This document shows, in pieces, positions 136 to 41,136 of a stretch of DNA of 41,912 nt. Made by a program: the position numbers and the translations under genes. Source of the DNA: Escherichia phage Sortsne. Within the stretch, counting starts at the first letter, position 1. Each line of letters starts with the position of its first letter. The stretch is from sequence record NC_048178.1; one strand, given 5' to 3'. The notes beneath the pieces were generated by a model. The model was not told the origin of the DNA, searched no databases, and worked only from the letters and a program-made list of their open reading frames with translations.

Positions 136-1806
136 TTAAAAGTCCTGTAGATCGTCGGTGTGGTCGTCGGTCGGTTGCCAGTCCGTCGGACGCGGATCGT
201 TATCGCGGATTCCGCCCAGTGGTCCCATAGATTCCATCATGGCCGTCAGCGTCTCGTCGCCTGCCATCTTTATCAGGATCTGCTTTTTGGTGGCATGTTC
301 GAACGCGCGATAAAAATCGACCTTGCTCATTGGCGGCTCGGCGGCGTTGCGCATCCATTCAGACAGCGCGCCTTTCGTCAGCTTAGGCCCCCGGTACTTG
401 TTGGCCTTGCGGCGCTCGTTGTACTCGTGGACGTACTGAGCGAGCCTGAGAGCGTTTTCCTGGGTCTTGCTAACCTTCTTCTCCGCCTGCTGCGCTTCGT
501 CCGCGCCTGCGGCCTCCTGTTTGACCATTTCGGGCTTATTGATAACGACCAGCGTCGTGTCGTTGTTGCCGATGTTCCACGCTGCCGGGTCGTCGCTGTT
601 CGTGACCTTGCTCATGCGGGCCATAGCCTCGCGCTTCGCCTGCACGAGCGCCGGAGGGAGTTTTACGGTCTTTGTACGGAACGCGCGACGGTCCAGCATG
701 GCGGAGCCTTTGGCCTTCGTGTGGTCGAAGATGAAAAGCTCCCGGTCCTTGTGCTTGGACAGCGTGATCTCGAATGCGGCGTTTGCCTTGAGCGCCGACG
801 CACCGCGCGCGCCCCTGGCGACGTCCTTCCCGGAGTGGTGGAGGATCACCACGCCACAGTTAAGCGCCTCGGCCAGCTTCTGCGCGTTGACCATCAGGAG
901 CGCGGCCTGGTCGTTGTTGTTCTCGCTGAATGGCTCGCCCCCGGTCCAGCGTCCGGCCTCGTCGCCCGTCGGCTCCCTCCAGACCTCGCCGATCTTCTGG
1001 CCTGCGGAGTTGGCGCTGTAGGTGTCAATTATGACCAGCGCCGGGGGATTGGCTTCGAAGAACGGGGAGGAGTTGATCGCCGCTGCGAACTTCATCAGGT
1101 CGCGCTCGCGGTTGAGTGGGACAGGTCGGCCCATGATAAACAGGTTATCCAGTGGCTTGTCGCCGTTCTGGCTGTAGCGCCAGCCCGCGTATCGCTCTTT
1201 CACGCCGTCGGCGTCCTCTGGTGCGAAGTACAACACGGAGCCTTTACGGACGGGCAAGCCGCCGAAGTGGTGGCCCTTCGCCACGCTGATCGCCATCTGT
1301 AGCGCGCAAAAGGTCTTTTTGGCCCCGGACTCGCCGACGATGAAGCCCACGGACCGCTCCGGGATCAGGTTCTGGATCACGTAGTTAACCACGCGGATCT
1401 CGGACTCCGCTCGCAGACGGTCCACGAGTTCGTCCGGCTGCTTCGCCAGCATTTCGGCGATCTTCGCCTTGTCACGTGCGCGGCGCTCCTCGGTGGTCAG
1501 GCTGCGCGGCATCATGGCGGGCTGGTTGTCCTCGTCCAGTACGACGTCCCACTGGTGATCCTCCTCCACGCTGGCGATCTGCCACAGGCTAAACTCCTCC
1601 ATGCTTACGCCGACCTGTTCGGCCTGTTCTTTGGCGAGCATTTCCTCCCGCTCCAGATCCTCCAGCGTAGGCTCCGGGGCCTGTTCCTGAATTGCTGCCA
1701 GGTCTGGGGGGATCTCGTGGTGCTCGATGGCTTCCGGTTCAAACATGGCGCGGAGTTCTTCTTCGCTCGGCTCCTGCTGCCCTTCGTCTCTGTCGTCTTG
1801 AATCAT
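136..1806 (-). CDS. RecA-fold replicative helicase/ATPase (RepA/DnaB-like, AAA_25-type) with acidic N-terminal extension
   Basis: 556-aa ORF; Walker A GESGAKKT followed by VVILHHSGKD motif typical of RepA/DnaB-like hexameric helicases; about 150-aa acidic N-terminus; GTTACC iterons on both sides. Confidence 0.6.
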   Translation of the reverse strand: MIQDDRDEGQQEPSEEELRAMFEPEAIEHHEIPPDLAAIQEQAPEPTLEDLEREEMLAKEQAEQVGVSMEEFSLWQIASVEEDHQWDVVLDEDNQPAMMPRSLTTEERRARDKAKIAEMLAKQPDELVDRLRAESEIRVVNYVIQNLIPERSVGFIVGESGAKKTFCALQMAISVAKGHHFGGLPVRKGSVLYFAPEDADGVKERYAGWRYSQNGDKPLDNLFIMGRPVPLNRERDLMKFAAAINSSPFFEANPPALVIIDTYSANSAGQKIGEVWREPTGDEAGRWTGGEPFSENNNDQAALLMVNAQKLAEALNCGVVILHHSGKDVARGARGASALKANAAFEITLSKHKDRELFIFDHTKAKGSAMLDRRAFRTKTVKLPPALVQAKREAMARMSKVTNSDDPAAWNIGNNDTTLVVINKPEMVKQEAAGADEAQQAEKKVSKTQENALRLAQYVHEYNERRKANKYRGPKLTKGALSEWMRNAAEPPMSKVDFYRAFEHATKKQILIKMAGDETLTAMMESMGPLGGIRDNDPRPTDWQPTDDHTDDLQDF

Positions 1807-1952
1807 AACGCTTTCCTTAAATCATGGTAACAGTGTGAGGTTTCATTGTAACCACGGCGTGTTACCGCGTCAACGTCCCACCGTTAAAGATAATTCTTTA
1901 CATCATGGTTTCGCTGTATTACCTTTAAGACTCCCCACTTCGGGAGGTATAG

Positions 1953-2393
1953 ATGGAAATTTTCGGGAGTAACGGCGTCGCCCCGGTGCGGCGCAAAACC
2001 AGCGCGGAGAAGCTGCTGGAGATACTGGAGAAGGTCACGCCCACGGATCTGTCCATTCAGGACGCTATCGATCGCGGGGTGCTGGATCGCTTCGGAGTGA
2101 CGCAAGAAGTCCGGGACGCTTTCGCCCGGCTGCGGCCATCGGAGCAAATCTTCGCGGCGTTCTTCGGTGTCGAGGGTGTGAACGACGAGGCAATGATGGC
2201 CCTATGTCGCCACACGGCAAACATGGAGCGCGCCGGACTGCTGCGCGATCTGAAAGTGGACAGGAGCCTTATCGAATGCGCTCCGGTCGAGTCGGACGGT
2301 CTGGACCACGTGATCCCCCCAGGGGTCGAGGTCGGACCGGAATTAGCCGCCGCCGTTCTGCGGTGTCGGGAACAGTTGAGGAGCAAACAGTGA
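1953..2393 (+). CDS. hypothetical protein
   Basis: 146-aa ORF with GGGAGG Shine-Dalgarno 8 nt upstream; first gene of plus-strand cluster divergent from helicase. Confidence 0.5.
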   Translation: MEIFGSNGVAPVRRKTSAEKLLEILEKVTPTDLSIQDAIDRGVLDRFGVTQEVRDAFARLRPSEQIFAAFFGVEGVNDEAMMALCRHTANMERAGLLRDLKVDRSLIECAPVESDGLDHVIPPGVEVGPELAAAVLRCREQLRSKQ

Positions 2394-2593
2394 AAAAGTT
2401 GTTAATGCGGATCGTTACTAACATAACCATCATGATCGCCGTCTACGTCGTCGTGATGTTCTTCGCTCCGGGGCATATCAAGCCGGGCGGACTGGAGGCC
2501 GTAGCCGCTGCGCTCACGCTGGCCGTTCTCGTTGCGCTGGACTACGTGCGCGACTTCATCGTGAAAGTTCTGGACCAGAAGGGGGAAGCGTAA
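2390..2593 (+). CDS. small hydrophobic (membrane) protein
   Basis: GTG start overlapping upstream stop (GTGA), GAGGAG RBS 8 nt upstream; sequence MRIVTNITIMIAVYVVVMFFAPG...LTLAVLVAL suggests two TM helices; alternative ATG start at 2405. Confidence 0.4.
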   Translation: MKKLLMRIVTNITIMIAVYVVVMFFAPGHIKPGGLEAVAAALTLAVLVALDYVRDFIVKVLDQKGEA

Positions 2594-3156
2594 TGTTTAT
2601 CAAGGTGAAGCGTTTTAACATGGAGTGCCTGCTGAATATCCACAAGATCGAGGCGGTGGTCCCGATGGACGACGGCAAGACGACCAGCGTTAAGGCTGAG
2701 GGCCATAGCTTCGACTGGGCGATCCCGTTCGACCAGGCTCAAGACGTCTTGATCGACTGCGCGGCCCAGGTGACGGCCCCGATCGCCTCCCGCGTGATGG
2801 CGCTGGACAATACGCTGGCACGTACCGCCCGGAGCGTGGAGGACCTGCTGGAGAAGCTGGACAGCGCCATGAATACGCCGATCATTAACTGCGACGGCAT
2901 GACGCCGGAGGAGGCGGAGCGATTCAAGTCCACCATGCGAGACACGCGCGCCACGCTGGACAGCATCCAGCCCCGGCTCGTTAGCCAGCCAGACGGGACG
3001 AAGGCGCGCCTAATGAGAGCGGAGGCTCTGCTGGCGGAGGTCCATCACGCATGGAACAACGACGCGGACGCGGCCAGCGCGATCGGCCACTACCTCGGAT
3101 CGAATATCGAAAACTTTTTGTACCCAGGCGAAAAAAAGGCTTGTGATAAAGAATAA
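2593..3156 (+). CDS. hypothetical protein
   Basis: 187-aa ORF; ATG overlaps upstream stop (TAATG), implying translational coupling. Confidence 0.5.
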   Translation: MFIKVKRFNMECLLNIHKIEAVVPMDDGKTTSVKAEGHSFDWAIPFDQAQDVLIDCAAQVTAPIASRVMALDNTLARTARSVEDLLEKLDSAMNTPIINCDGMTPEEAERFKSTMRDTRATLDSIQPRLVSQPDGTKARLMRAEALLAEVHHAWNNDADAASAIGHYLGSNIENFLYPGEKKACDKE

Positions 3157-3169
3157 ATCACGATAGTAT
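3141..3169 (+). promoter_or_regulatory. sigma70-like promoter TTGTGA-N17-TAGTAT with ATCACGA motif in spacer
   Basis: Read directly from sequence; followed by a 5' hairpin and gene 3217. Confidence 0.4.
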
Positions 3170-3178
3170 TAAGTTGTC

Positions 3179-3197
3179 GCCGGGGAATGGCCCCGGC
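3179..3197 (+). promoter_or_regulatory. 5'-UTR hairpin GCCGGGG-AAUGG-CCCCGGC (boxB-like candidate)
   Basis: Perfect 7-bp stem, pentaloop AAUGG, about 10 nt after predicted transcription start. Confidence 0.4.
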
Positions 3198-3216
3198 AAT
3201 AACGGAGATTGAGACG

Positions 3217-3456
3217 ATGGCAAAATTAACAGTACGCATCACAAACGGTCAGGAACGCGGTCGCCAGTGGAATCACCACTTTAAAGCCACATCGGGCCAC
3301 GCCACTGTTAAGCGTTACCTGGACTGGAAAGCGGCGGAACTCACAGGCGAGGAGCCGGAAGTCGAGGACTACGTGGACGAGTTCACCACACGCGGCGAAG
3401 TCGAAGCACGTCGCATTATCCATCGTAACAACCTGCGCGCCGCTGAATACTACTAA
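3217..3456 (+). CDS. hypothetical protein
   Basis: Start refined to ATG at 3217 (GGAG RBS 9 nt upstream); the track start at 3187 lies inside a perfect 5' hairpin. Confidence 0.5.
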   Translation: MAKLTVRITNGQERGRQWNHHFKATSGHATVKRYLDWKAAELTGEEPEVEDYVDEFTTRGEVEARRIIHRNNLRAAEYY

Positions 3457-3460
3457 CCAG

Positions 3461-3498
3461 CCCGGCCCCTTCGGGGGCCATCCACCCAGGAGTCGAAG
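3461..3498 (+). repeat. conserved intercistronic element, copy 1 (hairpin GGCCCC-UUCG-GGGGCC plus CCCAGGAGTCGAAG leader)
   Basis: Near-identical to 16206-16245. Confidence 0.6.
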
Positions 3499-3876
3499 AT
3501 GTCAAAAATGATCGTTGTTACCCGCTGGCCTACTGCCGCCGACGCACAGCAAGACGCGGAGCGCGTGGCCTCACTCATTCGCGCCCATTCCTGCGTCCAG
3601 TCCATGCCGATCCGCGTTAACACATACGAGCGCGAGGAGAAGCTGGGCGGCGGGTTCGGCTACGTGCTTACATGCGGCCCGGTGTCGATAGTCTGCCGGA
3701 GCCTTACACGTTACACGGCCTGCTATTCCCTGCCGGAAGGTCCACGCGGAAACCATCGGGACGAGTTCGAGGCGGTCACGGCTGAGGCGGCGATCGATGA
3801 AATGCGGGAATTTCTGGAAGCGCGGATCGAACATGCCCGGCTCGCGCTGGCCGTACTGGCCGGGCCGGACTCATGA
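3499..3876 (+). CDS. hypothetical protein
   Basis: 125-aa ORF preceded by conserved hairpin plus CCCAGGAGTCGAAG leader. Confidence 0.5.
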   Translation: MSKMIVVTRWPTAADAQQDAERVASLIRAHSCVQSMPIRVNTYEREEKLGGGFGYVLTCGPVSIVCRSLTRYTACYSLPEGPRGNHRDEFEAVTAEAAIDEMREFLEARIEHARLALAVLAGPDS

Positions 3877-4094
3877 TCCCGGCGAAGGTGCAACGGAAAG
3901 CGAAGGCGATCCTCCACCTGTACGCCCAGAAGGAGGTCCAGCCCCGCAAGCTGGCCGGAGGTCTGGGCCTCGCGCTGGAGGTCGGTTATCGCTGGCGTCT
4001 CCTGTCGCGTGACAAGGGCGCAACGTGGGATCTGGTATCACACGAGCGCTACAACAAACTAACCAGGGGCAAAAAGCCCCGCACAATGAGGTAA
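3873..4094 (+). CDS. hypothetical basic protein
   Basis: 73-aa ORF, ATGA start/stop overlap with upstream gene; Lys/Arg-rich. Confidence 0.4.
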   Translation: MIPAKVQRKAKAILHLYAQKEVQPRKLAGGLGLALEVGYRWRLLSRDKGATWDLVSHERYNKLTRGKKPRTMR

Positions 4095-4099
4095 CTACA

Positions 4100-4396
4100 A
4101 TGCAAAAATATTACTATCTGGTAGAGGCTCACGGTCGCCAGGTGCTGGTCCGCAAGGGCGAAAGCGAAGAAGATCTCCCGGCGATCCAGTTCGTGACGCA
4201 CACGGACGACGGCGCGGAAATGTCGTTCGGCCTGAATTTTGAGCCGAAGGAAGGCTCCACCGAAGAAGCCGCCGAAGCGGACCGCGATCGCGCCTTCGAG
4301 AAGGAGGAAGAACTCCGCACTATGGCCGAAGCCTACGCGGAGAAGCTGATCGGATGTGCTACCGGGTTCGACGCTTTGCGCGCTTTGCAAGGCTAA
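4100..4396 (+). CDS. hypothetical acidic protein
   Basis: ATG at 4100 with GAGGT RBS 7 nt upstream (track ORF 4025 trimmed to this start). Confidence 0.45.
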   Translation: MQKYYYLVEAHGRQVLVRKGESEEDLPAIQFVTHTDDGAEMSFGLNFEPKEGSTEEAAEADRDRAFEKEEELRTMAEAYAEKLIGCATGFDALRALQG

Positions 4397-4420
4397 TCAA
4401 AACGTTATTCCATTCCTACT

Positions 4421-4441
4421 AAGGGGCCTTTGCGGCCCCTT
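4421..4441 (+). terminator. GC hairpin (weak terminator/attenuator) upstream of holin
   Basis: AAGGGGCC-TTTGC-GGCCCCTT hairpin, short T tract. Confidence 0.3.
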
Positions 4442-4494
4442 GATTCTACGTGCTACCCTTTAGCGGTTATTTAATTGTTAAAAGGGATCAGGCA

Positions 4495-4851
4495 ATGTCC
4501 GAACATACGACGCTCTGGCAATTGTTCCAGTTGTACCGGGTGGAGTTGGGTTATTCATTCATCGCGGCGTCTGTCGCGGTATTCCGTCACTGGCAATTAC
4601 GCCACCCATTCCGCGATATCGTAAGCGGCGGGGCCATCTGCGCGGCGGTGGCGTTCGGGATGAATAACATCCTGTCATTCTTTGGGGTCGATCATGGTAC
4701 GTGGGGTTATCTGGCGTCCGTGTTCCTGGGTTACGTGGGCGTGGAGACGGCGCTCGACTGGGCCAGCGAAAAGATCCCTTTCCTGAAAAAAATCCGCGCC
4801 ACCCCGGCGCATACTTCACCAGCGGAGGATCAGACCGATGGCAAAATTTAA
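4495..4851 (+). CDS. putative holin
   Basis: 118-aa protein with hydrophobic segments and charged C-terminus, immediately upstream of and overlapping the endolysin gene; position in lysis cassette. Confidence 0.5.
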   Translation: MSEHTTLWQLFQLYRVELGYSFIAASVAVFRHWQLRHPFRDIVSGGAICAAVAFGMNNILSFFGVDHGTWGYLASVFLGYVGVETALDWASEKIPFLKKIRATPAHTSPAEDQTDGKI

Positions 4852-5311
4852 GCTAAACGAACAGCGCCGCGCCTTTCTGGACGCGATCGCCTACTGCGAG
4901 GGGACCGACAACGGACGCCAGCAAACGCGAAACCACGGTTACGACGTGGTGGTGGGCGGCTCCCTGTTCTCCGACTATTCGAAGCATCCCGATCGCCTGG
5001 TGCGCCTGCGTCCGGGCCTCTCCTCCACGGCTGCTGGCCGCTACCAGTTGTTAAGCCGTTATTACGACGTGTACAAAAAACAGCTTGGCCTCCCGGACTT
5101 CGGGCCGGACAGCCAGGACCAGATCGCGCTCCAGCAAATCAGCGAGCGTAAAGCGCTGGAGGATATCGACGCGGGCCGGATCGAGTCTGCCGTGGCGAAG
5201 TGTAACAAGACGTGGGCCAGCCTGCCCGGCTCCCCTTACGGTCAGCATACCTACAGCATGGCCGTATTTCTGGAGCAATTCCGCAAGGCGGGCGGGAAGG
5301 TGGCCGCATGA
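4838..5311 (+). CDS. endolysin, lambda R-type lytic transglycosylase
   Basis: 157 aa; strong resemblance to lambda R as recalled (FLDAIAYCEGTDNGRQQTRNHGYDVVVGG...AGRYQLLSRYYD...WASLPG). Confidence 0.9.
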   Translation: MAKFKLNEQRRAFLDAIAYCEGTDNGRQQTRNHGYDVVVGGSLFSDYSKHPDRLVRLRPGLSSTAAGRYQLLSRYYDVYKKQLGLPDFGPDSQDQIALQQISERKALEDIDAGRIESAVAKCNKTWASLPGSPYGQHTYSMAVFLEQFRKAGGKVAA

Positions 5312-5829
5312 TCGCCGCCCTCCGGCTGTTCCTCTCGACTCACTGGCGCTTAGTGCTGCTGGCCGTTGTCGTGCTGCTGGCGCTGGGGGGATCTTTCTGG
5401 GCGGGCCACGAGTGGAGCGATCGCGCGTGGTCCAAACGCTGGGCGCAACGGGACGCGAACGACTCCTCCCAGGAAGCGAACGCACAAGCCGCCGCCCGTA
5501 TCATTGAACAGGGGCGAAACATCGCCCGCGAGGAGTCCGTAAAATATGCGAACGAACAGGCCGCAAAAGCTCGCGCCGCTGCTGCTGCTTCTGGTGCTGC
5601 CCTTGATCGGTTGCTCGAACGAGCCAGCAAGGAAGCCGCCCGACGCGAAGCCGCTGATCAGACCGCTGCCCTCGGAAGGGCGTCAGGGGAACAGACCGCC
5701 CGAATGTATTCCGACTTGCTCCGACGGACTGGAGAAGCTGCTCGACGGTATGCTGATATAGCGGAGGGGGCGATCACCGCTGGGGAGGTATGCGAAAGGA
5801 ATTACGACGCCGTGGAGCGTCAGCAATGA
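5308..5829 (+). CDS. i-spanin (Rz-like)
   Basis: N-terminal TM anchor then Ala/Arg/Glu-rich coiled-coil-like periplasmic region; directly after endolysin; contains embedded lipoprotein ORF. Confidence 0.7.
   Translation: MIAALRLFLSTHWRLVLLAVVVLLALGGSFWAGHEWSDRAWSKRWAQRDANDSSQEANAQAAARIIEQGRNIAREESVKYANEQAAKARAAAAASGAALDRLLERASKEAARREAADQTAALGRASGEQTARMYSDLLRRTGEAARRYADIAEGAITAGEVCERNYDAVERQQ
5546..5761 (+). CDS. o-spanin (Rz1-like), embedded in Rz in alternate frame
   Basis: 71-aa ORF wholly inside Rz; signal peptide with lipobox LIGC; proline-rich mature part. Confidence 0.65.
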   Translation: MRTNRPQKLAPLLLLLVLPLIGCSNEPARKPPDAKPLIRPLPSEGRQGNRPPECIPTCSDGLEKLLDGMLI

Positions 5830-5858
5830 GAAAGGGGCCTTGCGGCCCCTTTTTTTAT
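5829..5858. terminator. bidirectional intrinsic terminator between lysis cassette and Ig-like gene
   Basis: AAAGGGGCC-TTGC-GGCCCCTTT stem-loop followed by T7, A-rich on the other side; convergent gene ends. Confidence 0.8.
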
Positions 5859-6625
5859 GCTGCCGGATTAACCGTAACAGTACAGTGAATGGATTCGACC
5901 GTTTTCGGGGGGTTGGTGTTGCTGCTGGTGGCTACGCACCAGTATTCCCCGGCATCACCAGCGACCGGGGACGCTTTGGTGTAGGTCGCGGAGGTCGCCC
6001 CGGAGATCGGCGCGCCGTCCTTGTACCACTGGTAAGAGTACGGAGCGAGGCCCGTCTGAGGGTTCGCGGCCACTACCAGGGAGGCGGAGGTCCCGACGGT
6101 CCACGTCGCGCTCGCGGACAGGTTGGTGGACAGCGAGATCGCGACCTTCGTCCTCACGCGCTGAGAGTCCAGCGTCTGCCCGATCGAGTCGGTGATGGTC
6201 ACGAAGTAGTCCGCGTTATGGGTCGCTGCGGTGTAGTTCGAGATCGTCAGCGTGTCAGTCGTTGCGCCGCTGTAGCCGTTGGCGTTGGTGACGTTGCTCG
6301 TCTGCCCGCCGGAGATTTTCTTCCACTGGTAGGAGTAAGGAGGAACGCCATCAGCGGCCACCACTTTAAAGTCCTTACTGGTGCTAACCGGGACGTAAGT
6401 CGCGCCAGCGTCGCCAGCGGCCACGCCGGGGAGATCGGTCGTGAACTTGAGCGGCTTCGCCAGGTTCGGGTCGTACTCCATGTAAAACATACCAGTGGGA
6501 TCAAGCCCGGTCGGCTCGTCAGCCAGCCAGATCACGTCCTGCTGAGGGACTTCCGACGGGTCGGAGATCCGGGTGACTTTCCAGCCCAGGAGATCCGGGC
6601 GGTAGTAGCGATGCCAATAACTCAT
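5855..6625 (-). CDS. Ig-like domain protein (two tandem Ig-like repeats)
   Basis: Start refined to ATG at 6625 (GAGGA RBS); repeated PPYSYQWKK / APYSYQWYKDG motifs typical of bacterial Ig-like domains. Confidence 0.55.
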   Translation of the reverse strand: MSYWHRYYRPDLLGWKVTRISDPSEVPQQDVIWLADEPTGLDPTGMFYMEYDPNLAKPLKFTTDLPGVAAGDAGATYVPVSTSKDFKVVAADGVPPYSYQWKKISGGQTSNVTNANGYSGATTDTLTISNYTAATHNADYFVTITDSIGQTLDSQRVRTKVAISLSTNLSASATWTVGTSASLVVAANPQTGLAPYSYQWYKDGAPISGATSATYTKASPVAGDAGEYWCVATSSNTNPPKTVESIHCTVTVNPAA

Positions 6626-6699
6626 AATTTTGTCCTCATGGTGCGCCGTGTTATAGTTCCCCGGCATTGTAGATCATCTTTGAGCCGTAAACGAAAGGA

Positions 6700-16205: not shown

Positions 16206-16245
16206 ACAGGCCCCTCCGGGGGCCAGATCCTCCCAGGGGTCGAAG
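16206..16245 (+). repeat. conserved intercistronic element, copy 2 (hairpin GGCCCC-UCCG-GGGGCC plus CCCAGGGGTCGAAG leader)
   Basis: Near-identical to 3461-3498. Confidence 0.6.
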
Positions 16246-16686
16246 ATGAAACAATGCTCAATCTGTCGAACCATGAAGCCGTTAGAGGACTTCCACAGGA
16301 ACAAGCGCCAGAAGGACGGAAGGGATCGGCGCTGCCGGACGTGTAAGAGCGCCTATTGCAAGGAGCGCTATCACGGAGATCCAGACCATAAGGAGAAGAT
16401 CATCGCCCAGGTGAAGGAGTACCAGGCGGGGCCGGGGCGGGAGAAGTCGAACGCCACAAAGTCGGCCTATCATTCGAAGCATCCGAAGAAGCGACACGCC
16501 CACAATCTGGTCCGTAACGCTCTGAGGCGCGGAGAGCTAACGAGGGGGCCGTGTGAGGTCTGCGGCGTCGAGAAGGTAGTGGGCCACCATGACGACTACG
16601 ATCGACCGTTAGACGTGCGCTGGCTCTGCGAGAAGCATCACAAAGCCTGGCATCTGGTCCACGGTGAAGCGCTTAATCCCGATTGA
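16246..16686 (+). CDS. Cys/His-rich zinc-binding protein (possibly HNH-like)
   Basis: CSICR...CRTCK and CEVCG...HHDDY...WLCEKHH clusters; preceded by conserved hairpin plus leader. Confidence 0.45.
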   Translation: MKQCSICRTMKPLEDFHRNKRQKDGRDRRCRTCKSAYCKERYHGDPDHKEKIIAQVKEYQAGPGREKSNATKSAYHSKHPKKRHAHNLVRNALRRGELTRGPCEVCGVEKVVGHHDDYDRPLDVRWLCEKHHKAWHLVHGEALNPD

Positions 16687-17221: not shown

Positions 17222-17252
17222 AGAAAGGGGCCAATTAAGGCCCCTTTTTTTA
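17222..17252. terminator. bidirectional intrinsic terminator between recombination operon and tailspike
   Basis: AAAGGGGCC-AATTAA-GGCCCCTTT plus T-run; convergent gene ends. Confidence 0.8.
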
Positions 17253-19625
17253 TGGTCCGCCAGTGATAGGCGGGCGGGTCTGGATCTGCTTATACATCCT
17301 GATCTGAGTCTCCGCCGGGATCGCCGTCTGGATGGCGTCCGCGATATCGACCACGATCGGCGCGCCGGAGTCACTCGGCGGCGTCTGGTACGGAGGGCGG
17401 ACGACCGTCGTCACGAGGTCAGCGCCACCAGCGCCAGCTTTCGGAATGACGATCCGCGTCCCAGGGGACAGCATGGTGGTATAGAGCCACGGCGATCCGG
17501 TAGAGGTCCCGTTAGGCGTTAACCACTGCGTGATCGACTTCTGGCCCACGCTCGCGGCCATGATCTTCGCCTGGTTCCCGGTCGGGAAGTACGCGCCAGC
17601 CTCCACGACGAGGTAAGGCTTAAGCCCCACGATCCCGTTAGGTCCGTTAGCCGGATCGTTGCCGCCGTAGTCGTAAGTCCAGACCAGATCGCCGCGGTCG
17701 AACTCGCGGCCACAGGGGAAGAAGTTGCCATATCCGCCGTGGGCCGTGATATCCGGGAAAAACTGTTTAGACACGTTTCCCAGCATAGCGCCCAGCGAGC
17801 CGTCGATGTTGACATACATCCGGGCCTCAATATTGGAATTGACAATATTGATATTGCTGTAACGGCACTTGCTCCACGCCTGCGTCGTCGGGTTCCGGCT
17901 GTTAACGTTGACCATGTTCAGGACGGATTTAGTCCTGATATATTCCCCGTTCGAGGTGGTCCCGCCGCTGGAGTCGTCGCCCACCGCGTCCAGTTCCCAG
18001 CATTGAACGTTAAACATATCAAGCTGAGTCGCCACGCCGAAGATCGTCAGTTTGTAACAGTCGATATTCTCCAGTTTTACCCGGTTATCGTGGGGGGATC
18101 GGTTAACGCCCGGCGTCGGGTCGCCACGGTCAGCGGCCACAGGGCAGTAAACACGGCCCGTTTTCGTGCGGACGTTGCGGATCGTATAGTTGCGCGGAGA
18201 GGACAGACGCGGCGGCCCCCATTCCATATGGATAATGCGGAGATCGTGGACGTCGGTCGAGGCGTTGGTGACAGGCTCCCCGTCCACGCCGTCGATCACG
18301 AAGTCTTTACAGCCCGACGTGTAGATCCCGGCGGTGGTGATGCCAGTCCCCACGGACATATTCACATCCGGGTTAACGGTCACATTCTGGATCGTGAAGT
18401 CGCGCCCCATTTCAACGTGAATACACTGTTTACACTGGTTAACGAGAACGTTACGGATCGTGAAGTTGCGCGCGTAGTTCTCGTCAGGCAGATCCCAGCC
18501 ATAAGGGCCTTTACCCGCGATACCGATCCCCAGGCCCCAGTTAGAAGCGAAGTTGCCGGGGTTAATGCCGTTGATGTTGTCGAGGAGGATATTTTCGATA
18601 ACGCAACCATTTTCAAAGCATTGATGGACCACGTTTAGCTCGATCCCGTCGCCCTGCATGTTAACAAATGCGAGGTTGCGGAAGATGCCGCGAGACATAA
18701 ACGCATTGCCGCCCTGGTGAATGATCCCGTTATAGCCGTTCGTAAACAGGCATCCGTCCATCTCGATCGTTCCCCAGATCTGAGGACCGCCGGACTGTAC
18801 GCCCTGGATGTTGACATGAGAGTTATTGCTCCCCCCAGGGATGCCGTCATACCAACAATCAAACATCCGCACGTCGCCGCCGTCATGGCGCATACGGTGG
18901 CCGTTACGGCCTAACACGTTTCGTAAGGTCGTATTCTGACACCACATCGAACGACCGCGCCACGTACCGCCGATCACCTCGCAGTTAACAAAGCGGGGAT
19001 CGTTGCCCGTCAGCGTCCAGTCGCCACCACGGATCACGATGTTACTCGCGGTAAGGATGCCGTTAGTCGTGCCTTTCCAGCCATGCGCCCAGACTTCGAG
19101 GCCGTTCGCGCTGGCGTAGTCAAACATCGCCTGTAAAGCCTGCGTTACGCTGGTGTATTCCGGCTTGCCGACGAAGTTCCACGGCGTCACGTAGCCGTTT
19201 AGCTGCTCCTGCACGTTGCCGACTGGCGTCCCGACATAGCTCGCGCCCTTCCCGGAGATCAGGAGGCTCCACATCTGCGCCGGGTCGTATTCGAACAGGT
19301 TCCCGAAATAGTATTGTTGGACGTCGTTACGGTCGTAAACGGCCATAGACGCCTCGATCTTCGTGACCAGCTTCACCACTTGACCATTCCAGATCGGGAA
19401 GCCGACGACGTTCGTCCGTACAGGCTGCGGGATAGGGGTCAGGGTTAGATCCTCGTTCTCGACGTAGATCTGGACCTGGTTCTCCGGGTTCGTCGGGTCG
19501 GTGTCGGCCTTTCCTGCGTAGATCTTCCCGTCCACCAGCGAGGCGAATCGGTCCTTACGAAAGAACGGTTGCGACGGCATCCCTAACGTGCTGAATACCT
19601 CAAGTTGTGCCATGAATCGCTCCAT
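17250..19625 (-). CDS. tailspike protein (P22-type N-terminal head-binding domain plus beta-helix receptor-binding/depolymerase domain)
   Basis: N-terminus GKIYAGKADTDPTNPENQVQIYVENED...NGQVVKLVT...SMAVYD closely parallels the P22 tailspike N-domain as recalled; the rest has beta-helix-like repeats. Confidence 0.85.
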   Translation of the reverse strand: MERFMAQLEVFSTLGMPSQPFFRKDRFASLVDGKIYAGKADTDPTNPENQVQIYVENEDLTLTPIPQPVRTNVVGFPIWNGQVVKLVTKIEASMAVYDRNDVQQYYFGNLFEYDPAQMWSLLISGKGASYVGTPVGNVQEQLNGYVTPWNFVGKPEYTSVTQALQAMFDYASANGLEVWAHGWKGTTNGILTASNIVIRGGDWTLTGNDPRFVNCEVIGGTWRGRSMWCQNTTLRNVLGRNGHRMRHDGGDVRMFDCWYDGIPGGSNNSHVNIQGVQSGGPQIWGTIEMDGCLFTNGYNGIIHQGGNAFMSRGIFRNLAFVNMQGDGIELNVVHQCFENGCVIENILLDNINGINPGNFASNWGLGIGIAGKGPYGWDLPDENYARNFTIRNVLVNQCKQCIHVEMGRDFTIQNVTVNPDVNMSVGTGITTAGIYTSGCKDFVIDGVDGEPVTNASTDVHDLRIIHMEWGPPRLSSPRNYTIRNVRTKTGRVYCPVAADRGDPTPGVNRSPHDNRVKLENIDCYKLTIFGVATQLDMFNVQCWELDAVGDDSSGGTTSNGEYIRTKSVLNMVNVNSRNPTTQAWSKCRYSNINIVNSNIEARMYVNIDGSLGAMLGNVSKQFFPDITAHGGYGNFFPCGREFDRGDLVWTYDYGGNDPANGPNGIVGLKPYLVVEAGAYFPTGNQAKIMAASVGQKSITQWLTPNGTSTGSPWLYTTMLSPGTRIVIPKAGAGGADLVTTVVRPPYQTPPSDSGAPIVVDIADAIQTAIPAETQIRMYKQIQTRPPITGGP

Positions 19626-28189: not shown

Positions 28190-28217
28190 AAAAAAGAGGC
28201 CACAAAGGCCCCTTTTC
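28190..28217 (-). terminator. intrinsic terminator after major capsid gene
   Basis: GC hairpin followed by U8 on minus strand directly downstream of coat stop codon. Confidence 0.6.
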
Positions 28218-28235
28218 TCATAGTGCGCGGCTCGC

Positions 28236-30990: not shown

Positions 30991-31403
30991 TTGTTGCGCG
31001 CTCCGATCATGGCTTGCCAGGTAAACACGACCGTATCGGAAAGAAGCTCGTCCACTCCCTCCTCCTCCATCTGCTCGTAAAGTCCATCGAGAGCGCCGGG
31101 GATCTGCTCCCATAGGGCTTTACGTCCGGCCTCGATCTGCTCCGCCGTCGGCTGGAGTTCCACCTCGATCGGGGCCGGAGCGACTTCGCCCGCCTTCACC
31201 TGCGGCTCCGCGTTGGTCATGAGGGCCTCGACCTGCATCGCCACGATAGCGATCGCCATGCCATACGCCGCCAGATCCTGCTCGGTCGGCTGCTGAATGA
31301 AACGGCCAGCCAGTCGGGCCTCGTGCTGCTTCACCAGCGCCTCGATCCCCATTTCTTCGGCCTGGGCCAGCATGATCGCGCGCATTGCTTTTGCTTCGTT
31401 CAT
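30987..31403 (-). CDS. hypothetical acidic protein (portal-scaffold insertion, gene 2 of 3)
   Basis: 138-aa ORF preceded by GGCCCC-CACA-GGGGCC hairpin and CCAACCAACGAGAGAGAC leader. Confidence 0.45.
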   Translation of the reverse strand: MNEAKAMRAIMLAQAEEMGIEALVKQHEARLAGRFIQQPTEQDLAAYGMAIAIVAMQVEALMTNAEPQVKAGEVAPAPIEVELQPTAEQIEAGRKALWEQIPGALDGLYEQMEEEGVDELLSDTVVFTWQAMIGARNK

Positions 31404-31453
31404 CGTTTTGTCTCTCTCGTTGGTTGGTTAGGCCCCCACAGGGGCCGGGTTAG

Positions 31454-31997: not shown

Positions 31998-34232
31998 TTA
32001 TTGGGCGGCGTTGTCCAGCGTCCGATCGGCCTGCTGCTGCGCCTGGCGTTCTGCCAGTTCGCGGGCGGCGTTGTCGTTCTGCTGCTGGTGTCCCTGGCCC
32101 ACGGAGCGGAGGAACAGGTCCGCCTGTTTGTGGGCGTCGTCCTTCTCCGCCGTGACGTACTTTTGCAGGATGGCGATCGCGGACAATAGCTGTTCCTGCG
32201 GGATCGCTGCGGCTTCGGCCATCGTTTTGACGGTCTGGGCCTGCTTAAGCTGCGCGCCGCTGCTGGAGTCCTGCGCCTTGAGTTGCAGTTCTGCGCGCTT
32301 GTTCTCCTGCTCCATCACTGCCGCCTGCCCCTGGGCCGCTACGCCCTGCGCTGCGATCATCTGCGGGTCCGGCTGCTGCTGTTGCGCCTGCTGGGCCTGC
32401 TCGACCATCGCCTTTTCCTCGTCCGTCTGAGGCTGCACGATGCCAGAGAGGAGCATCTGTTTACGGCTGTACTCTTTGAAGTCCTGCAAGCCTTCGCCGT
32501 CCATGTTCGCAATGATCAGCGACATGACGATCGCCGCGTTCGGGTCGTTCGGGGCCATCGTGGCGAGGAGGTTCGTCAGACTGCGGACCGTTGCCTGGCG
32601 CTTCGTCTGGGAGGACTCGCCAACGTCGGCGACAACCTCATATTTTCCGCGCTTGAGGTCGTTAATCGCGATCGCCTCTTTGGTGGTGCGGTCGATCACT
32701 TTCCCGGTCATTAACACGAGGTCGTCGGTCCCGTCCTCGTTCTCGATCCTCACGTAGTTCTCGGAGCCGTAGACCTTGCGGGCGGCGGAGAGGTAGACGC
32801 GGCCACAGTGGCGGAGGGTTTTCGCCAGGTTGTCCATATAGAGCGCGCCCTGGCCGTCCATGCGGGCGAAAATTGCCTCCACGGTTTCGGTCGCCAGGTT
32901 CGACGGGAGCGCCTCAAGCTGGGAGGAGCCGACGATCTGCTGGATGGTCCCGCCCGTGTACTGTAGGACCGCTGCCAGCGCCGGAGAAAGCGGCGTTGAT
33001 GGCGTGTACCCTAACGGGCCAGCCTGCGCCACGACCTCACCAGAAGCGTTACGGAGCGATTTAGCGGGCAAGTATGCCGGGCGGTTCGTGTTACGTTCCC
33101 CCCAGGCGTCCGCCAGCTTGCCGGGAATCATATCAATATCCATGATCGGGATATTGTCGCCGCCTGCCTGCGCTGCCTGGTCGGCCATCATGGACACGAT
33201 CAGGTTTTCCAGTCGCTGGGCGTCCATTGCGAGGGTGGCGTGGCCCATTACGCGCTCCTGGTTGTCGATAAACGAGCGGCGCGCGTTGAAGATAAAGACC
33301 GGAATCCAGTCGAACGGGATCAGCTTCGGCTCCTCGATCCACTCTCCGCCGGAGAACAGCCCGCAATAAACCTTACGGCGCTTAACCTTACGGCTCTTGA
33401 GTTTCTTCCAGCCTGCGGCCTTTAGCTCGTCCTCGATCAGATCGATATCGTCCTCGTCGTAGACCTCCGTCTCCCCGGTGAGTGGGTTCTTATAGGAGAT
33501 CACGGTGGTGTCCTCGATCTTCACCTCGTACCAGCGGGCGATATAGATCGCGTCCTTCGTGGCCCAGTCGAAATTTTTCCCGGTGTTGAGTTCCATCAGG
33601 TCCTCCGGGAGCATCGCGTCCGGGTACTCCTCCTCGTACTTGTCCGGGGTCATGCTGAATAGCTCGGCCATCCACATGGCATCCGAACGATCGTACATTT
33701 TGGAGTCGGGATCGACGAACAGGCACGAGGCCGGATCATAGATCGGGTAAAACGTGATATGCCGCTCCTCGTTGTCCGGGTCGAATTGGTCCTCCAGTTC
33801 GGTGTCCATGCGAAACGCGCCCATCCCGCCGTCGATCCCGTCGCCGTAGGTGTTATCGACGGACTCCGGCCCGTTGCTCTCGTTGTAGTCGGCGCGGAAT
33901 TTGCCGTTTAGCTTGTCGGCTAACTCCTCGCTGGCCTTGTCGTCCTTCGGACGGAATACCACGGAGACACGGTTCAGACGGTAGTCGGCGATCAGGCGGT
34001 CACACTCTCGCGCTACTTTGTTAAGCTCGAATCGAGGGTATTTCTCAAAGCGATCATCATCCATGCGAAAGCCGCTGTTAGTGCTGCCTTCCCACTGCGC
34101 GCCCGGTACGCGGACAAAGCGCTGGGTTTCGATAATCTTCTTGCGGCTCTGCTCCTCGCTGCTGATCGACTGGCTGAGGCGCTTACGTGCGCTCTCGTGC
34201 CAGTTCTGGGCCGACTTCGTTACTCGTGCCAT
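31998..34232 (-). CDS. portal protein (P22 gp1-like) with Gln-rich C-terminal barrel
   Basis: 744 aa, size and position as in P22-like phages; long Q/A-rich helical C-terminus. Confidence 0.85.
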   Translation of the reverse strand: MARVTKSAQNWHESARKRLSQSISSEEQSRKKIIETQRFVRVPGAQWEGSTNSGFRMDDDRFEKYPRFELNKVARECDRLIADYRLNRVSVVFRPKDDKASEELADKLNGKFRADYNESNGPESVDNTYGDGIDGGMGAFRMDTELEDQFDPDNEERHITFYPIYDPASCLFVDPDSKMYDRSDAMWMAELFSMTPDKYEEEYPDAMLPEDLMELNTGKNFDWATKDAIYIARWYEVKIEDTTVISYKNPLTGETEVYDEDDIDLIEDELKAAGWKKLKSRKVKRRKVYCGLFSGGEWIEEPKLIPFDWIPVFIFNARRSFIDNQERVMGHATLAMDAQRLENLIVSMMADQAAQAGGDNIPIMDIDMIPGKLADAWGERNTNRPAYLPAKSLRNASGEVVAQAGPLGYTPSTPLSPALAAVLQYTGGTIQQIVGSSQLEALPSNLATETVEAIFARMDGQGALYMDNLAKTLRHCGRVYLSAARKVYGSENYVRIENEDGTDDLVLMTGKVIDRTTKEAIAINDLKRGKYEVVADVGESSQTKRQATVRSLTNLLATMAPNDPNAAIVMSLIIANMDGEGLQDFKEYSRKQMLLSGIVQPQTDEEKAMVEQAQQAQQQQPDPQMIAAQGVAAQGQAAVMEQENKRAELQLKAQDSSSGAQLKQAQTVKTMAEAAAIPQEQLLSAIAILQKYVTAEKDDAHKQADLFLRSVGQGHQQQNDNAARELAERQAQQQADRTLDNAAQ

Positions 34233-34247: not shown

Positions 34248-35870
34248 TTAGCGGTTGCTCGGCACATTATAGCCGTTGTAATCGTCATTTTTCACGCGCT
34301 CCGGCGGCTGCATCAACATGCAAAGCACGTCGGCCATGCCAGGCGATTTCATTTTTAACTTGGTGCGCATCTGCGGCTTAGGCATACGCTGGAATTTCCC
34401 CTCCGTGTTGTAAACGCGGGGAATACGGCATACCTCGGCGCGTAGCTTCTGCATATGCTCCCCGATCCCCTCGCTGGAGAGGCTGATCAGCTCGTCCGGG
34501 TTCACGTACTCGCCGTGGACCACGGCCCGGTAAGTCTTTTCAAAGCGGCGGCGTAACAGGTAGATATCCTGGGAGCCTCGGTTCTTAAAAGCGTTCTGAT
34601 TTTTCAGAAGGTTGTCGCCTTCGGTCTTGTTATTTAGCCACGTATCAAGCTCCACCAGCCCGTCCGGCTGGTTCACGCCATCCCCGGCGTTATACCCCGA
34701 CACGAGGGTGTTAGTCGAGGCGTAAGCGTCGGTGATCTGGCGGCGGAGGCCAGCGCCCAGCCCTGCCCGGTCCCAGATAAACGCCTCCACGCCGTGATCC
34801 TTCGCCGTGTTCACGGCCTTGTCCGCTGCGTCGTTGGCGTCGCCTTCGAACCACTCCTCCATCCACGTGACCACGGAGCCGTAACGCTCGCCGTATGCCT
34901 TGTTATCCGCCCCGACGTCCGCCGGGTCGAGTGCGCCGATCCTCATGCCGGACGGCTTAAAGCCTAATTTCACATGAGCGTCGATCGCCGCGTCGAACCA
35001 CTCCGCCGGGATAATGGCATCCGGTACGCTGTCGTTAAAATGCCCTTCCCACACGTGATCGAACAGCGCGCGGGAGAGGGTTTTCCGGTCGAACTCCATT
35101 TCCGCCCGGAGTTCTGGGGGAAACCACGGATTATCCGACCAGTTAACGCGGATCACGAGGTGGAGATCGTCCTCGTAGATGCCGTCACGAAGGAGATCCT
35201 CCCAGAATGGATTGATAAATCGCTTCGAAAACGCATCCTCTGAGGAGCCGGGGTTCGCGGTGAATAGCATCATGCCGCCGGATTCGCGCATGGTCGGCGT
35301 TAGCTGGCGGATCGACTCCTCGGAAAAGGTCTGCGCCTCCTCACCCCAGAATCGACGATAACCGAACGCGGATTTAACCCCGGCGGGGTCGCGGGCCATC
35401 CCTTTAAAGCGGATGATCGCGCCGTTCTCGTGTCGGATCTCCTTCTCCAGTACCTCGAAGCCGTCCAGGTTCGACGCCTCGATCCGGTTGACGAGTAGCG
35501 GGTGTACGGAGTCCTTGATCGATGCCTGGTACTCACGAAGGCACAGGGCGCTCGTCGCCTCGTCGTGGGCGTCCGCGTCGATGATTGCGCCGACGGTGAG
35601 CGACTTCCCGGAGCCTCGGCCACCGACCAGGATCACAAAGCGCTTAGGCCGTAACAGGATCGGGGTCAGGACCTCCGCGATCGTCAGGTCGTGCGGGTCG
35701 CTGGTGTATACCCACTCGCCGTTAACCTTCTTCATGTTGTAGCAGTGGGCCGCACTGGTCCCATCCGGGCGGTAGACGCCGTAAACCAGCCCGCCCTCCT
35801 TCGCCTTATAGCGGAGTTGCGCCTCCAGTCGTGCGAGGCGCTCCAGCGCCTCCTTACGATTTCTTGCCAT
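34248..35870 (-). CDS. terminase large subunit
   Basis: Walker A VGGRGSGKS near N-terminus; C-terminal acidic RNase H-like nuclease region; upstream of portal. Confidence 0.85.
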   Translation of the reverse strand: MARNRKEALERLARLEAQLRYKAKEGGLVYGVYRPDGTSAAHCYNMKKVNGEWVYTSDPHDLTIAEVLTPILLRPKRFVILVGGRGSGKSLTVGAIIDADAHDEATSALCLREYQASIKDSVHPLLVNRIEASNLDGFEVLEKEIRHENGAIIRFKGMARDPAGVKSAFGYRRFWGEEAQTFSEESIRQLTPTMRESGGMMLFTANPGSSEDAFSKRFINPFWEDLLRDGIYEDDLHLVIRVNWSDNPWFPPELRAEMEFDRKTLSRALFDHVWEGHFNDSVPDAIIPAEWFDAAIDAHVKLGFKPSGMRIGALDPADVGADNKAYGERYGSVVTWMEEWFEGDANDAADKAVNTAKDHGVEAFIWDRAGLGAGLRRQITDAYASTNTLVSGYNAGDGVNQPDGLVELDTWLNNKTEGDNLLKNQNAFKNRGSQDIYLLRRRFEKTYRAVVHGEYVNPDELISLSSEGIGEHMQKLRAEVCRIPRVYNTEGKFQRMPKPQMRTKLKMKSPGMADVLCMLMQPPERVKNDDYNGYNVPSNR

Positions 35871-38039: not shown

Positions 38040-38986
38040 TTTACGCGGCGGAAGCGCTTAACCTGTTCCCACGCGACGACGCTCACCTGGAGCGTGTTAT
38101 GGCGTCCGCCTACCGTCTCGATCTCCACCATATCGTCGTCGTTCAGGAGGGGCGGGCGGCGGTCCTTGTCGAAGCGCTGCCACACGATCCAGTCCTCGCC
38201 CTGTTCGCCAGTCTGCGGACGGTCCAGCAAGGCGTCCAGCAATGCCTCCGCCGTACCGATAGTGATCCGCCCGCCTCGGTACTGCTCGATCAGTTGGCGG
38301 GTCTGGTCGGAGCGCTGGATGTGCCAGCGGAGGCTCTGCTCCGTCTCCTGGTGGACGCGCTCGGCGAAGTGGGCCACGCGCTCCGGGTCGGTGTCGCAAC
38401 GGGTCAGGCGCTCGCGGGCTTCGTGCTCGTTAACAAGCTGCTGGAGGCCGCGCGTCGGCATCTTGAAAACGTTCCAGTTATACGGGACGCGCTTCTCGTC
38501 GCAAGCCTTCACGTAACGCTCCAGAAGGTCCACGCGGCGCTCGGCGTCCTTCGCTGCCTCGGCGTGTTTCTCGCTGGCTTCGGCCATTGCCACCAGTTCG
38601 CGGGCCTTCTGCTCGGTCCATGCGATGGTCTGCGGCTTGCCGTCGATCGGGCGGAAGGTTGGCGGGACGTGTAGCGCGCCGACGATCTCGCGGATGTTCA
38701 CGTAATACCCGCTCATCCGGTGCTCCGCCTCGGTCATGGTCTGGAGTTGGCGCTCCAGTGCGCGCTCGTGGGACTTGTCGCGCCACTTCTCCGACTCCTT
38801 GAATACACGCTCCAGCGCGTCGAGGGACAGGAGGGGGAGGTGGTGCGGGGCCAGGTCCGGCTCGGCCTTAAAGCCGTGTTGCATGGCGTCGGTAACGTCG
38901 GCGATCCAGTTGGCGCGCTGCTGTACCTGGGTGCGGGCTACATGGTCCATCAGGGCGTAAGCCACGCCGCTGTCGTGTGAGTTCAT
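38036..38986 (-). CDS. hypothetical protein
   Basis: 316-aa ORF preceded by hairpin plus CCAACCAACGAGAGAGAC leader. Confidence 0.5.
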   Translation of the reverse strand: MNSHDSGVAYALMDHVARTQVQQRANWIADVTDAMQHGFKAEPDLAPHHLPLLSLDALERVFKESEKWRDKSHERALERQLQTMTEAEHRMSGYYVNIREIVGALHVPPTFRPIDGKPQTIAWTEQKARELVAMAEASEKHAEAAKDAERRVDLLERYVKACDEKRVPYNWNVFKMPTRGLQQLVNEHEARERLTRCDTDPERVAHFAERVHQETEQSLRWHIQRSDQTRQLIEQYRGGRITIGTAEALLDALLDRPQTGEQGEDWIVWQRFDKDRRPPLLNDDDMVEIETVGGRHNTLQVSVVAWEQVKRFRRVK

Positions 38987-39032
38987 AGTCTTGTCTCTCT
39001 CGTTGGTTGGCCCCGTTGCCGGGGCGGTTGGA

Positions 39033-40739: not shown

Positions 40740-41024
40740 TTATGCTGCGGCCAGTTCGCCGCCGATGAATGCCAGGACTTCGCGGAGGTGCTTCTCGTCG
40801 CGGATGGTGGCCGGGAGTTCTTCCTTGATGGCGCGATCCAGGTAGATATTGCCATTCCATGTATAGGAGCCGTTAGGGTTGACCAGATAGGAGAACATCC
40901 ATTCGCAATCGTTATCCGCTTCCCACACGCACAGGATGATCTTGCCGTCGTTGTCGATATCTTCCAGGGTCACGTCGAGGTTACGTTTTGCTGCGAAGGT
41001 TTTTGTAGTTTTGGACAGGTTCAT
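40740..41024 (-). CDS. hypothetical protein
   Basis: Start refined to ATG 41024 (MNLSKTTKTF...) with conserved CCAGCGAGAGAGAC leader. Confidence 0.4.
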   Translation of the reverse strand: MNLSKTTKTFAAKRNLDVTLEDIDNDGKIILCVWEADNDCEWMFSYLVNPNGSYTWNGNIYLDRAIKEELPATIRDEKHLREVLAFIGGELAAA

Positions 41025-41136
41025 GGCTTCGTCTCTCTCGCTGGTGGGCTGCACCGTTGCCGCCCTTGATGTGATAAAGAATATCTCAGAGGCGGCAAGG
41101 TGTCCAGCAAAATATCACGAAAAGATTAAATTATTT

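Follow-up and report, generated by a model that had tools for sequence, protein, structure and literature searches.

In phages lambda and P22, the terminase genes are directly preceded by the lysis genes on the same strand. A different position is found in Escherichia phage Sortsne, whose genome (NC_048178.1; 41,912 bp, about 60% GC) was analysed over its full length and is called the window here. Its plus strand holds eleven genes at 1953–5829, namely seven small open reading frames (ORFs), g1 to g7, followed by a complete lysis cassette. The cassette has the S-R-Rz/Rz1 gene order of lambda, overlapping stop/start junctions and an Rz1 embedded in Rz in the +1 frame. However, it does not head the late operon, it lies on the strand opposite to the packaging genes and its holin lacks a dual start of the S107/S105 type. 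Sortsne shares with P22 the type of portal (31998–34232, minus strand; PF16510, E = 3e-156), and genes for P22-type coat, ejection and tail-needle proteins are annotated in collinear relatives, but its lysis genes lie in a separate plus-strand block beside the replication helicase (136–1806, minus strand). The large terminase gene is located at 34248–35870 on the minus strand (PF04466, E = 3e-30), away from the cassette and not directly downstream of it. A sequence-only reading of this DNA had described lysis genes remote from the packaging genes, on the opposite strand and behind seven small ORFs, in a position unlike that of lambda and P22. All of these elements were recovered at about the positions given there. 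The same reading had attributed the layout to a mosaic rearrangement. Comparison with related genomes suggests another explanation: with a probability of about 0.75, the region represents the left arm that podophages of the Sortsnevirus/Murrayvirus type normally have, consisting of two adjacent plus-strand units whose position would be ancestral to at least five genera.

Sortsne (MK651787) is the type species of Sortsnevirus, and the conserved gene organisation of these genera has already been remarked on (PMC7552041). The block that was compared comprises the helicase (minus strand), four to nine small plus-strand genes, the lysis cassette and a Hoc-like gene with an Ig domain (5855–6667, minus strand) that is convergent with Rz. 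With megablast, the region matched Sortsnevirus, Murrayvirus and Kosakonia phage Kc237 at 77–85% identity. The Sortsnevirus phages IME279 and sortkaff, grouped with Kc237, have an identical gene order around the region. They differ in that IME279 and sortkaff carry no g5 homologue and that the holin and Rz/Rz1 of Sortsne are nearer to those of Murrayvirus. The Murrayvirus phages (Lumpael, IME_EC2, sortregn, sortsyn and KMB41) are collinear over the whole genome, which was seen end to end for sortregn with blastn, and have the same series of helicase, small genes, lysis genes and Hoc-like gene. However, they possess no g2 homologue, and their g1 to g3 are diverged or differently fused. The block is annotated in nine relatives, namely Kc237, Lumpael, sortregn, IME279, sortkaff, KMB41, Kc166B, Skarpretter (Skarprettervirus) and C130_2 (Hungariovirus), and thus recurs in at least five genera when Kc166B is counted beside Sortsnevirus, Murrayvirus, Skarprettervirus and Hungariovirus.

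Some of these phages are very distant from Sortsne. Its helicase is only 25% identical to that of Skarpretter at the amino acid (aa) level and was not matched in C130_2 by tblastn (E ≤ 0.01); the tblastn search with the helicase added no further syntenic genera. Skarpretter itself has 38% nucleotide similarity to its nearest relative, C130_2 (PMC7552041). Since the layout is common to such distant genera, it appears to be old and clade-wide, and any displacement of the lysis genes would be ancient. Judged from these comparisons, it is the architecture normal for this group of podophage genera, as published before, and not a rearrangement of this genome. The mosaic rearrangement claimed for Sortsne was therefore not supported, and the displaced lysis cassette should not be taken as a sign of unusual recombination in this phage. 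The sequence-only reading had itself named what would speak against it, namely related phages with the same arrangement and with characterised functions for the upstream genes. The former exist, whereas the upstream genes have no characterised function in any relative.

The genes of the cassette were correctly identified in that reading as an S-type holin, a lambda R-type endolysin and Rz/Rz1, in agreement with matches in Pfam, PHROGs and the PDB. The holin (4495–4851, plus strand, 118 aa) belongs to the lambda S family (PF05106, E = 5.4e-9; phrog_126 holin/anti-holin, E = 3e-17); its TIGR01594 score of 29.3 bits is under the cutoff of 55. Only the central transmembrane segment was clearly resolved by a simple hydropathy analysis. 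Translation starts with the ATG at 4495 and not with the GTG at 4450, as the extension derived from 4450 falls in a conserved leader and is unsupported by the annotations of relatives. The N-terminus (MSEHTT) has a single Met and does not show the Met-Lys-Met motif of a dual-start holin/antiholin. As in a lambda-type cassette, the gene of this class I holin is located immediately upstream of the endolysin gene and overlaps it. The endolysin (4838–5311, plus strand, 157 aa; phrog_90) is a lytic transglycosylase of the lambda R type. Its residues 5–155 match lambda lysozyme 1AM7 (E = 7.4e-60) and 3D3D (E = 7e-60), and its EGT motif (EGTDNG) with the catalytic Glu aligned with lambda lysozyme.

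The inner-membrane spanin Rz (5308–5829, plus strand, 173 aa; PF10721 DUF2514, E = 7.7e-31; phrog_312 Rz-like spanin, E = 1e-43) contains one N-terminal transmembrane segment at residues 15–33. The outer-membrane lipoprotein spanin Rz1 (5546–5761, plus strand, 71 aa) lies wholly inside Rz. It has a lipobox LIGC at residues 20–23 and 12 prolines, and its mature part is proline-rich. The embedded ORF is kept in relatives at 62–92% aa identity, and the pair of a membrane-anchored Rz and an embedded Rz1 lipoprotein constitutes a two-component spanin. During lysis, the holin would permeabilise the inner membrane, the transglycosylase would then cut the murein and the Rz/Rz1 pair would disrupt the outer membrane. 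The cassette is followed by a predicted bidirectional intrinsic terminator (5828–5858) with a strong hairpin at 5828–5855 (RNA fold −19.5 kcal/mol, z −3.15) and a T7 run, which is shared by the Rz side and the convergent Hoc-like gene. It belongs to three similar terminator-like hairpins, GGGGCC...GGCCCC and then a T-run, at 5829–5865 (the copy between Rz and the Hoc-like gene), 17224–17260 and 28192–28228. This repeat family suggests a common terminator design that punctuates the genome.

The sequence-only reading had treated the seven small genes and the lysis genes as a single cluster. The seven ORFs are real, but a GC-rich hairpin of the terminator type with a T-rich tail, conserved in the relatives, separates g7 from the holin gene and interrupts the cluster (4420–4449, plus strand; hairpin 4420–4442, RNA fold −16.8 kcal/mol, z −3.75). 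Compensatory changes were found at three of its eight pairs across six phages, with the arms GGGGCC/GGCCCC, GGAGCC/GGCTCC and GCGCC/GGCGC in relatives. At the other end, two sigma-70-like promoters stand back-to-back. The promoter facing the helicase (1845–1873, minus strand; TTGACG-17-TACAAT) gave 10 out of 12 matches in the promoter scan, and its block is conserved in the alignment of relatives. The promoter facing g1 (1897–1925, plus strand) reads TTTACA-17-TACCTT in Sortsne and TTTACA-17-TAATGT or TAATAT in relatives, and five phages from Sortsnevirus, Kc237 and Murrayvirus share its −35 element and spacer.

The lysis cassette is preceded by its own leader (4450–4494, plus strand), a stretch of about 45 nucleotides (nt) that is near-invariant across Sortsnevirus, Murrayvirus and Kc237. 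It is a candidate promoter or a candidate region for regulation and translational control. A late-promoter motif common to other operons was considered and rejected, as the block is unique in the window. In five genera, a pyrimidine tract of the leader can pair with a purine tract 11–17 nt upstream of the holin ATG, with other sequences forming the pairs in Kc166B (CCCC/GGGG) and Skarpretter (CCCUC/GAGGG). This leader hairpin might set the translation level of the holin.

The conserved divergent promoters, the covarying hairpin with its T-run and the conserved leader together argue for two units. The first one, g1 to g7 (1953–4396), would be an accessory operon of small, fast-evolving genes that is probably expressed early; host RNA polymerase would transcribe it from the sigma-70-type promoter back-to-back with that of the helicase, up to the hairpin terminator at 4420–4449. 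The second one (4495–5829) would be a self-contained lambda-type lysis cassette with its own 45-nt leader and a bidirectional terminator at its end. While the identities of the genes, the synteny, the conserved hairpin and promoter blocks and the fold of g6 are shown, we infer the early timing of g1 to g7, the separate control of the cassette and any host-directed function of the seven genes.

Several points weigh against this interpretation. The −10 hexamer TACCTT of Sortsne is weak with three out of six matches. Behind the terminator-like hairpin, IME279 and Kc237 carry an unbroken T8 run, whereas Sortsne has TTGATTCT; with this interrupted T-tract, read-through from g7 into the holin gene is possible. 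No recognisable sigma-70 promoter was detected in the lysis leader by promoter scan and alignment. An unusual sequestration of the Shine-Dalgarno (SD) sequence of the holin by the leader hairpin was rejected, as its accessibility of 0.45 was not exceptional compared to the genome median of 0.51 in a crude test. The assignments of promoters, terminators and timing come solely from consensus matches and sequence conservation. For five of the seven accessory proteins, no relative with a known function was detected, and "accessory or host-directed" describes the class of g1 to g7 and not a demonstrated function.

While the cassette as a whole keeps its place, the term "mosaic" does hold for single genes within the block, as their affinities switch from gene to gene. 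Sortsnevirus and Kc237 have the nearest relatives of the helicase, g1 to g4 and g6; for the helicase, the aa identity is 71% towards Sortsnevirus/Kc237 versus 51% towards Murrayvirus. Nearest to Murrayvirus are g5 (90% aa identity), the holin (97%), Rz (85%) and Rz1 (92%). At the nucleotide level, g5, holin and Rz are 86–88% identical to Murrayvirus versus 71–80% to Sortsnevirus and Kc237, and the helicase, g1 and g6 show the opposite pattern. The endolysin is nearest to the one of Kc166B (87%). C130_2 has homologous Rz/Rz1 at the same locus, and the holin and endolysin of Sortsne gave no tblastn match there (E ≤ 0.01). Between about four small genes (Kc166B) and nine (Skarpretter) precede the cassette, and the presence of g2, g5 or g6 in a relative does not depend on the other two. 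Given these gene-to-gene switches and the varying gene number, the block can be considered as a hot spot of recombination and gene turnover in a fixed frame; as judged from the identities, single genes are exchanged between genera by recombination within it. With accessory genes that turn over while helicase and lysis genes stay, g1 to g7 are a sensible list for host-interaction screens.

All seven upstream genes lack an assigned function, as the sequence-only reading had noted, and they are termed hypothetical in all related records with the sole exception of the g6 homologue of KMB41. Scans of g1 to g7 against Pfam, PHROGs, NCBIfam and PADLOC gave an informative match for g6 alone. For g1, g3, g4 and g7, nothing informative was found in these databases (PHROGs gave families of unknown function only), and g1, g4 and g7 were also covered by profile searches of the PDB. 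The acidic protein g1 (1953–2393, plus strand, 146 aa) belongs to phrog_30497 of unknown function (E = 9e-67) and had no match in Pfam, NCBIfam, PADLOC or the PDB; its homologues in Sortsnevirus, Kc237 and Murrayvirus are 52–70% identical (aa). It is followed by g2 (2390–2593, plus strand, 67 aa), which starts with GTG and overlaps g1 by 4 nt. This gene encodes a small membrane protein with two transmembrane segments predicted from hydropathy (residues 8–26 and 35–53), and its homologues are restricted to Kc237, IME279 and sortkaff. The most divergent gene of the operon is g3 (2593–3156, plus strand, 187 aa) with 33–39% aa identity to Kc237 and IME279, where the lengths differ, and 24% to Murrayvirus. 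It matched no family in Pfam, PHROGs, NCBIfam or PADLOC.

The gap between g3 and g4 contains a GC-rich hairpin (3173–3203, plus strand; RNA fold −20.3 kcal/mol, z −3.7) without a U-tract. For g4 (3217–3456, plus strand, 79 aa; phrog_33147), an alternative ATG at 3187 would lead to a protein of 89 aa. The start at 3217 is most likely the correct one, as the PHROG match does not set in before residue 11 of the 89-aa form and relatives are annotated with 78–83 aa. Homologues of g4 extend to Skarpretter and C130_2; it has no PDB match. The last gene of the unit, g7 (4100–4396, plus strand, 98 aa; phrog_19244), encodes a strongly acidic protein with an isoelectric point (pI) of 4.5 and a charge of −11, also without a PDB match. 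It has homologues in Sortsnevirus, Murrayvirus, Kc237, KMB41 and Skarpretter and is the final gene before the terminator in every relative that carries it. A role of g1 to g7 in host takeover or anti-defence, as proposed earlier, is plausible in view of the conserved sigma-70-like promoter, the gene content that varies among relatives and the presence of a RelE/ParE-fold protein with homologues in the early-left accessory regions of temperate phages.

This protein is g6 (3873–4094, plus strand, 73 aa), which is strongly basic (pI 11.1, charge +12.7) and matches PF24732, the "ParE-like toxin domain", with E = 7e-19. The protein is assigned a fold of the RelE/ParE superfamily; its AlphaFold model, built with 27 homologues, is confident (pLDDT 85.8) and consists of one helix, three strands and one short helix. 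Foldseek returned nothing significant for it, and single-sequence and profile searches of PDB sequences gave only spurious Asp-box (BNR) matches and no solved toxin; a motif S-x-D-x-G-x-T-W of g6 resembles an Asp-box hairpin. Canonical RelE/ParE toxins have two N-terminal helices. Compared to RelE, HigB, YoeB and ParE toxins, g6 is shorter, has one N-terminal helix and lacks a co-inherited antitoxin. R42 and D47 do not vary among the aligned homologues, and at least 90% of them have H57, E58 and Y60. The start codon of g6 lies within the stop of g5 (ATGA overlap) and has no SD sequence of its own, and complete base pairing is predicted for the 10 nt upstream (accessibility 0.00, the lowest value of all starts tested). 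Thus, g6 is probably translated in coupling with the gene in front of it. IME279, sortkaff and Kc166B have the same 4-nt overlap although the gene in front is unrelated there.

The g6 family was found by tblastn in 54 phage records including temperate enterobacterial phages, where the homologues belong to the early-left accessory genes near kil, xis and int. The homologue of KMB41 is labelled "putative toxin antitoxin system protein", and those of Serratia phages are labelled HigB-like. Longer bacterial versions with 94–97 aa are encoded by E. coli, Providencia, Salmonella and Morganella. The copies examined from E. coli and Providencia lie in the conserved core of ICEclc/PAPI-type conjugative elements in the order ParA, DnaB, a 549-aa protein, DUF2857, the ParE-like protein, a 425–431-aa protein, AcaB and, further on, topoisomerase III. 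In the extracted loci, the g6 homologue (6001–6285/6294) overlaps the 3' end of the DUF2857 gene. DUF2857 is a domain of BisC, a subunit of BisDC, the transfer-competence activator of ICEclc (PMC7423338). A published function of the g6-homologue gene of these elements was not found. Comparison of the phage and conjugative-element contexts indicates that the partner gene of g6 differs in each.

The preceding gene, g5 (3499–3876, plus strand, 125 aa), encodes a mildly acidic protein that is restricted to the Sortsne phage group; its family comprises seven clusters among 1.84 billion representative proteins. Single-sequence and profile searches of PDB sequences gave no match. The model (pLDDT 87.6) is an alpha-beta5-alpha sandwich, and its best structural neighbours are generic protein-binding folds, namely actin-capping protein, the TriTu immunity protein, type III secretion chaperones, AcrIIA11 and PsiB. 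The ribosome-binding site and start of g5 (3480–3501) are 91% identical over 22 nt to 16227–16248, with the pattern ATCC.CCCAGG.GTCGAAGATG. The latter is the start region of an unrelated ORF (16246–16686) without a Pfam match, and a weaker third copy is present at 2313–2334.

Other explanations of the region were weighed against the two-unit left arm. It is very unlikely that a mosaic rearrangement moved the lysis cassette in Sortsne and that the seven upstream genes were acquired along with it for host takeover or anti-defence. Such an event would account for a position unlike lambda and P22 in a phage with a P22-like morphogenesis module, for the gene-by-gene affinities within the block and for upstream genes that are small, variable and unannotated. 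However, an arrangement common to at least five genera, some of them very distant, largely refutes a rearrangement in this genome, and no match to PADLOC or to known anti-defence genes was obtained. Transcription of 1953–5829 as one late operon, in which g1 to g7 would be accessory proteins for lysis timing or the envelope (e.g. antiholin-like or superinfection-exclusion proteins) and would be co-expressed with the holin, also seems improbable. In favour of a single operon, the genes share one strand and are tightly spaced, g2 is a membrane protein with two transmembrane segments, either g6 or g7 always adjoins the cassette, the holin has no dual-start antiholin and the T-tract of the terminator is weak in Sortsne. 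The covarying hairpin with the T8 of the relatives favours real termination, though, and the promoter of g1 to g7 is paired with that of the replication helicase. Furthermore, the g6 homologues of temperate phages belong to early-left operons far from the lysis genes, and Murrayvirus does without g2.

Regarding g5 and g6, a type II toxin-antitoxin (TA) module with g6 as ParE/RelE-like toxin and g5 as antitoxin, which would kill or arrest the host or neutralise abortive-infection toxins, is a doubtful assignment. The order of antitoxin and then toxin, the ATGA overlap, the missing SD sequence of g6, the opposite charges of a mildly acidic g5 and a strongly basic g6, a g5 fold that resembles immunity proteins and chaperones, and the labels given to the g6 homologues in KMB41 and the Serratia phages are in line with such a module. 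However, the two genes are not co-inherited: g6 stands behind an unrelated 115-aa ORF in IME279 and sortkaff and behind a small membrane-protein ORF in Kc166B, and Skarpretter has g5 without g6. This argues against an obligate cognate pair. Two ways to restore the pairing were rejected. The 115-aa ORF in the g5 slot of IME279 is not a diverged g5, as BLASTP revealed no similarity, and the two ORFs at the g6 position in Skarpretter are not remote g6 homologues (hhalign probability <1%). The identities towards Murrayvirus are also discordant with 90% for g5 and 56% for g6. Antitoxins of such modules combine a DNA-binding domain with a toxin-wrapping tail. In its model, g5 shows no DNA-binding domain of the antitoxin type (RHH, HTH, AbrB or Phd/YefM), the upstream partner in the conjugative elements is DUF2857/BisC, a subunit of a transcription activator, and the Foldseek support was not significant.

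Tentatively, and with a low probability as well, g6 could instead be a stand-alone minimal RelE-like protein, an RNA- or ribosome-directed effector shared by phages and conjugative elements and not a TA toxin. With its extreme positive charge, it may bind RNA or ribosomes, and R42, D47, H57, E58 and Y60 could form an RNase site. Mobile elements might use a protein of this kind soon after their entry or activation to alter translation in the host or the stability of mRNA. T4 RegB is a phage endoribonuclease with a RelE-like fold and would be functionally comparable. The family spans virulent podophages of the Sortsne/Murray type, early-left operons of temperate enterobacterial phages and ICEclc/PAPI-type elements, where it appears to be coupled translationally to the BisC/DUF2857 gene. 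As a member of the little-studied RelE/ParE-fold family PF24732 without a consistent antitoxin partner, g6 is the only lead in the region worth an experiment.

Some minor observations were made on Kc166B and on the remaining window. In Kc166B, the deposited minus-strand coding sequence 2508–3119 (region 2500–4320) was probably mis-called. The plus strand contains a 104-aa ORF, the small membrane-protein ORF and an unannotated g6 homologue (3048–3269, 46% identical) directly ahead of the terminator and the holin gene; behind its endolysin gene, this phage has no Rz/Rz1. Rfam and tRNA scans of the whole window gave no matches, and no terminal repeat was found at its ends. Close behind the end of the minus-strand helicase gene at 136, a perfect G/C-rich hairpin without an obvious U-tract, ATACCCCCCC-TTTA-GGGGGGGTAT, is located at 74–97. 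A 30-nt repeat (repeat families D6 and D11) occurs at 31398–31427, 38981–39010 and 41019–41048 with 83–93% identity among the copies and reads CCAACCAACGAGAGAGACAAGACTATGAAC on the minus strand. As a common leader with start codon, it precedes three minus-strand genes, two of them the ORFs with their ends at 31403 and 38986, and could be a shared translation-initiation or regulatory element.

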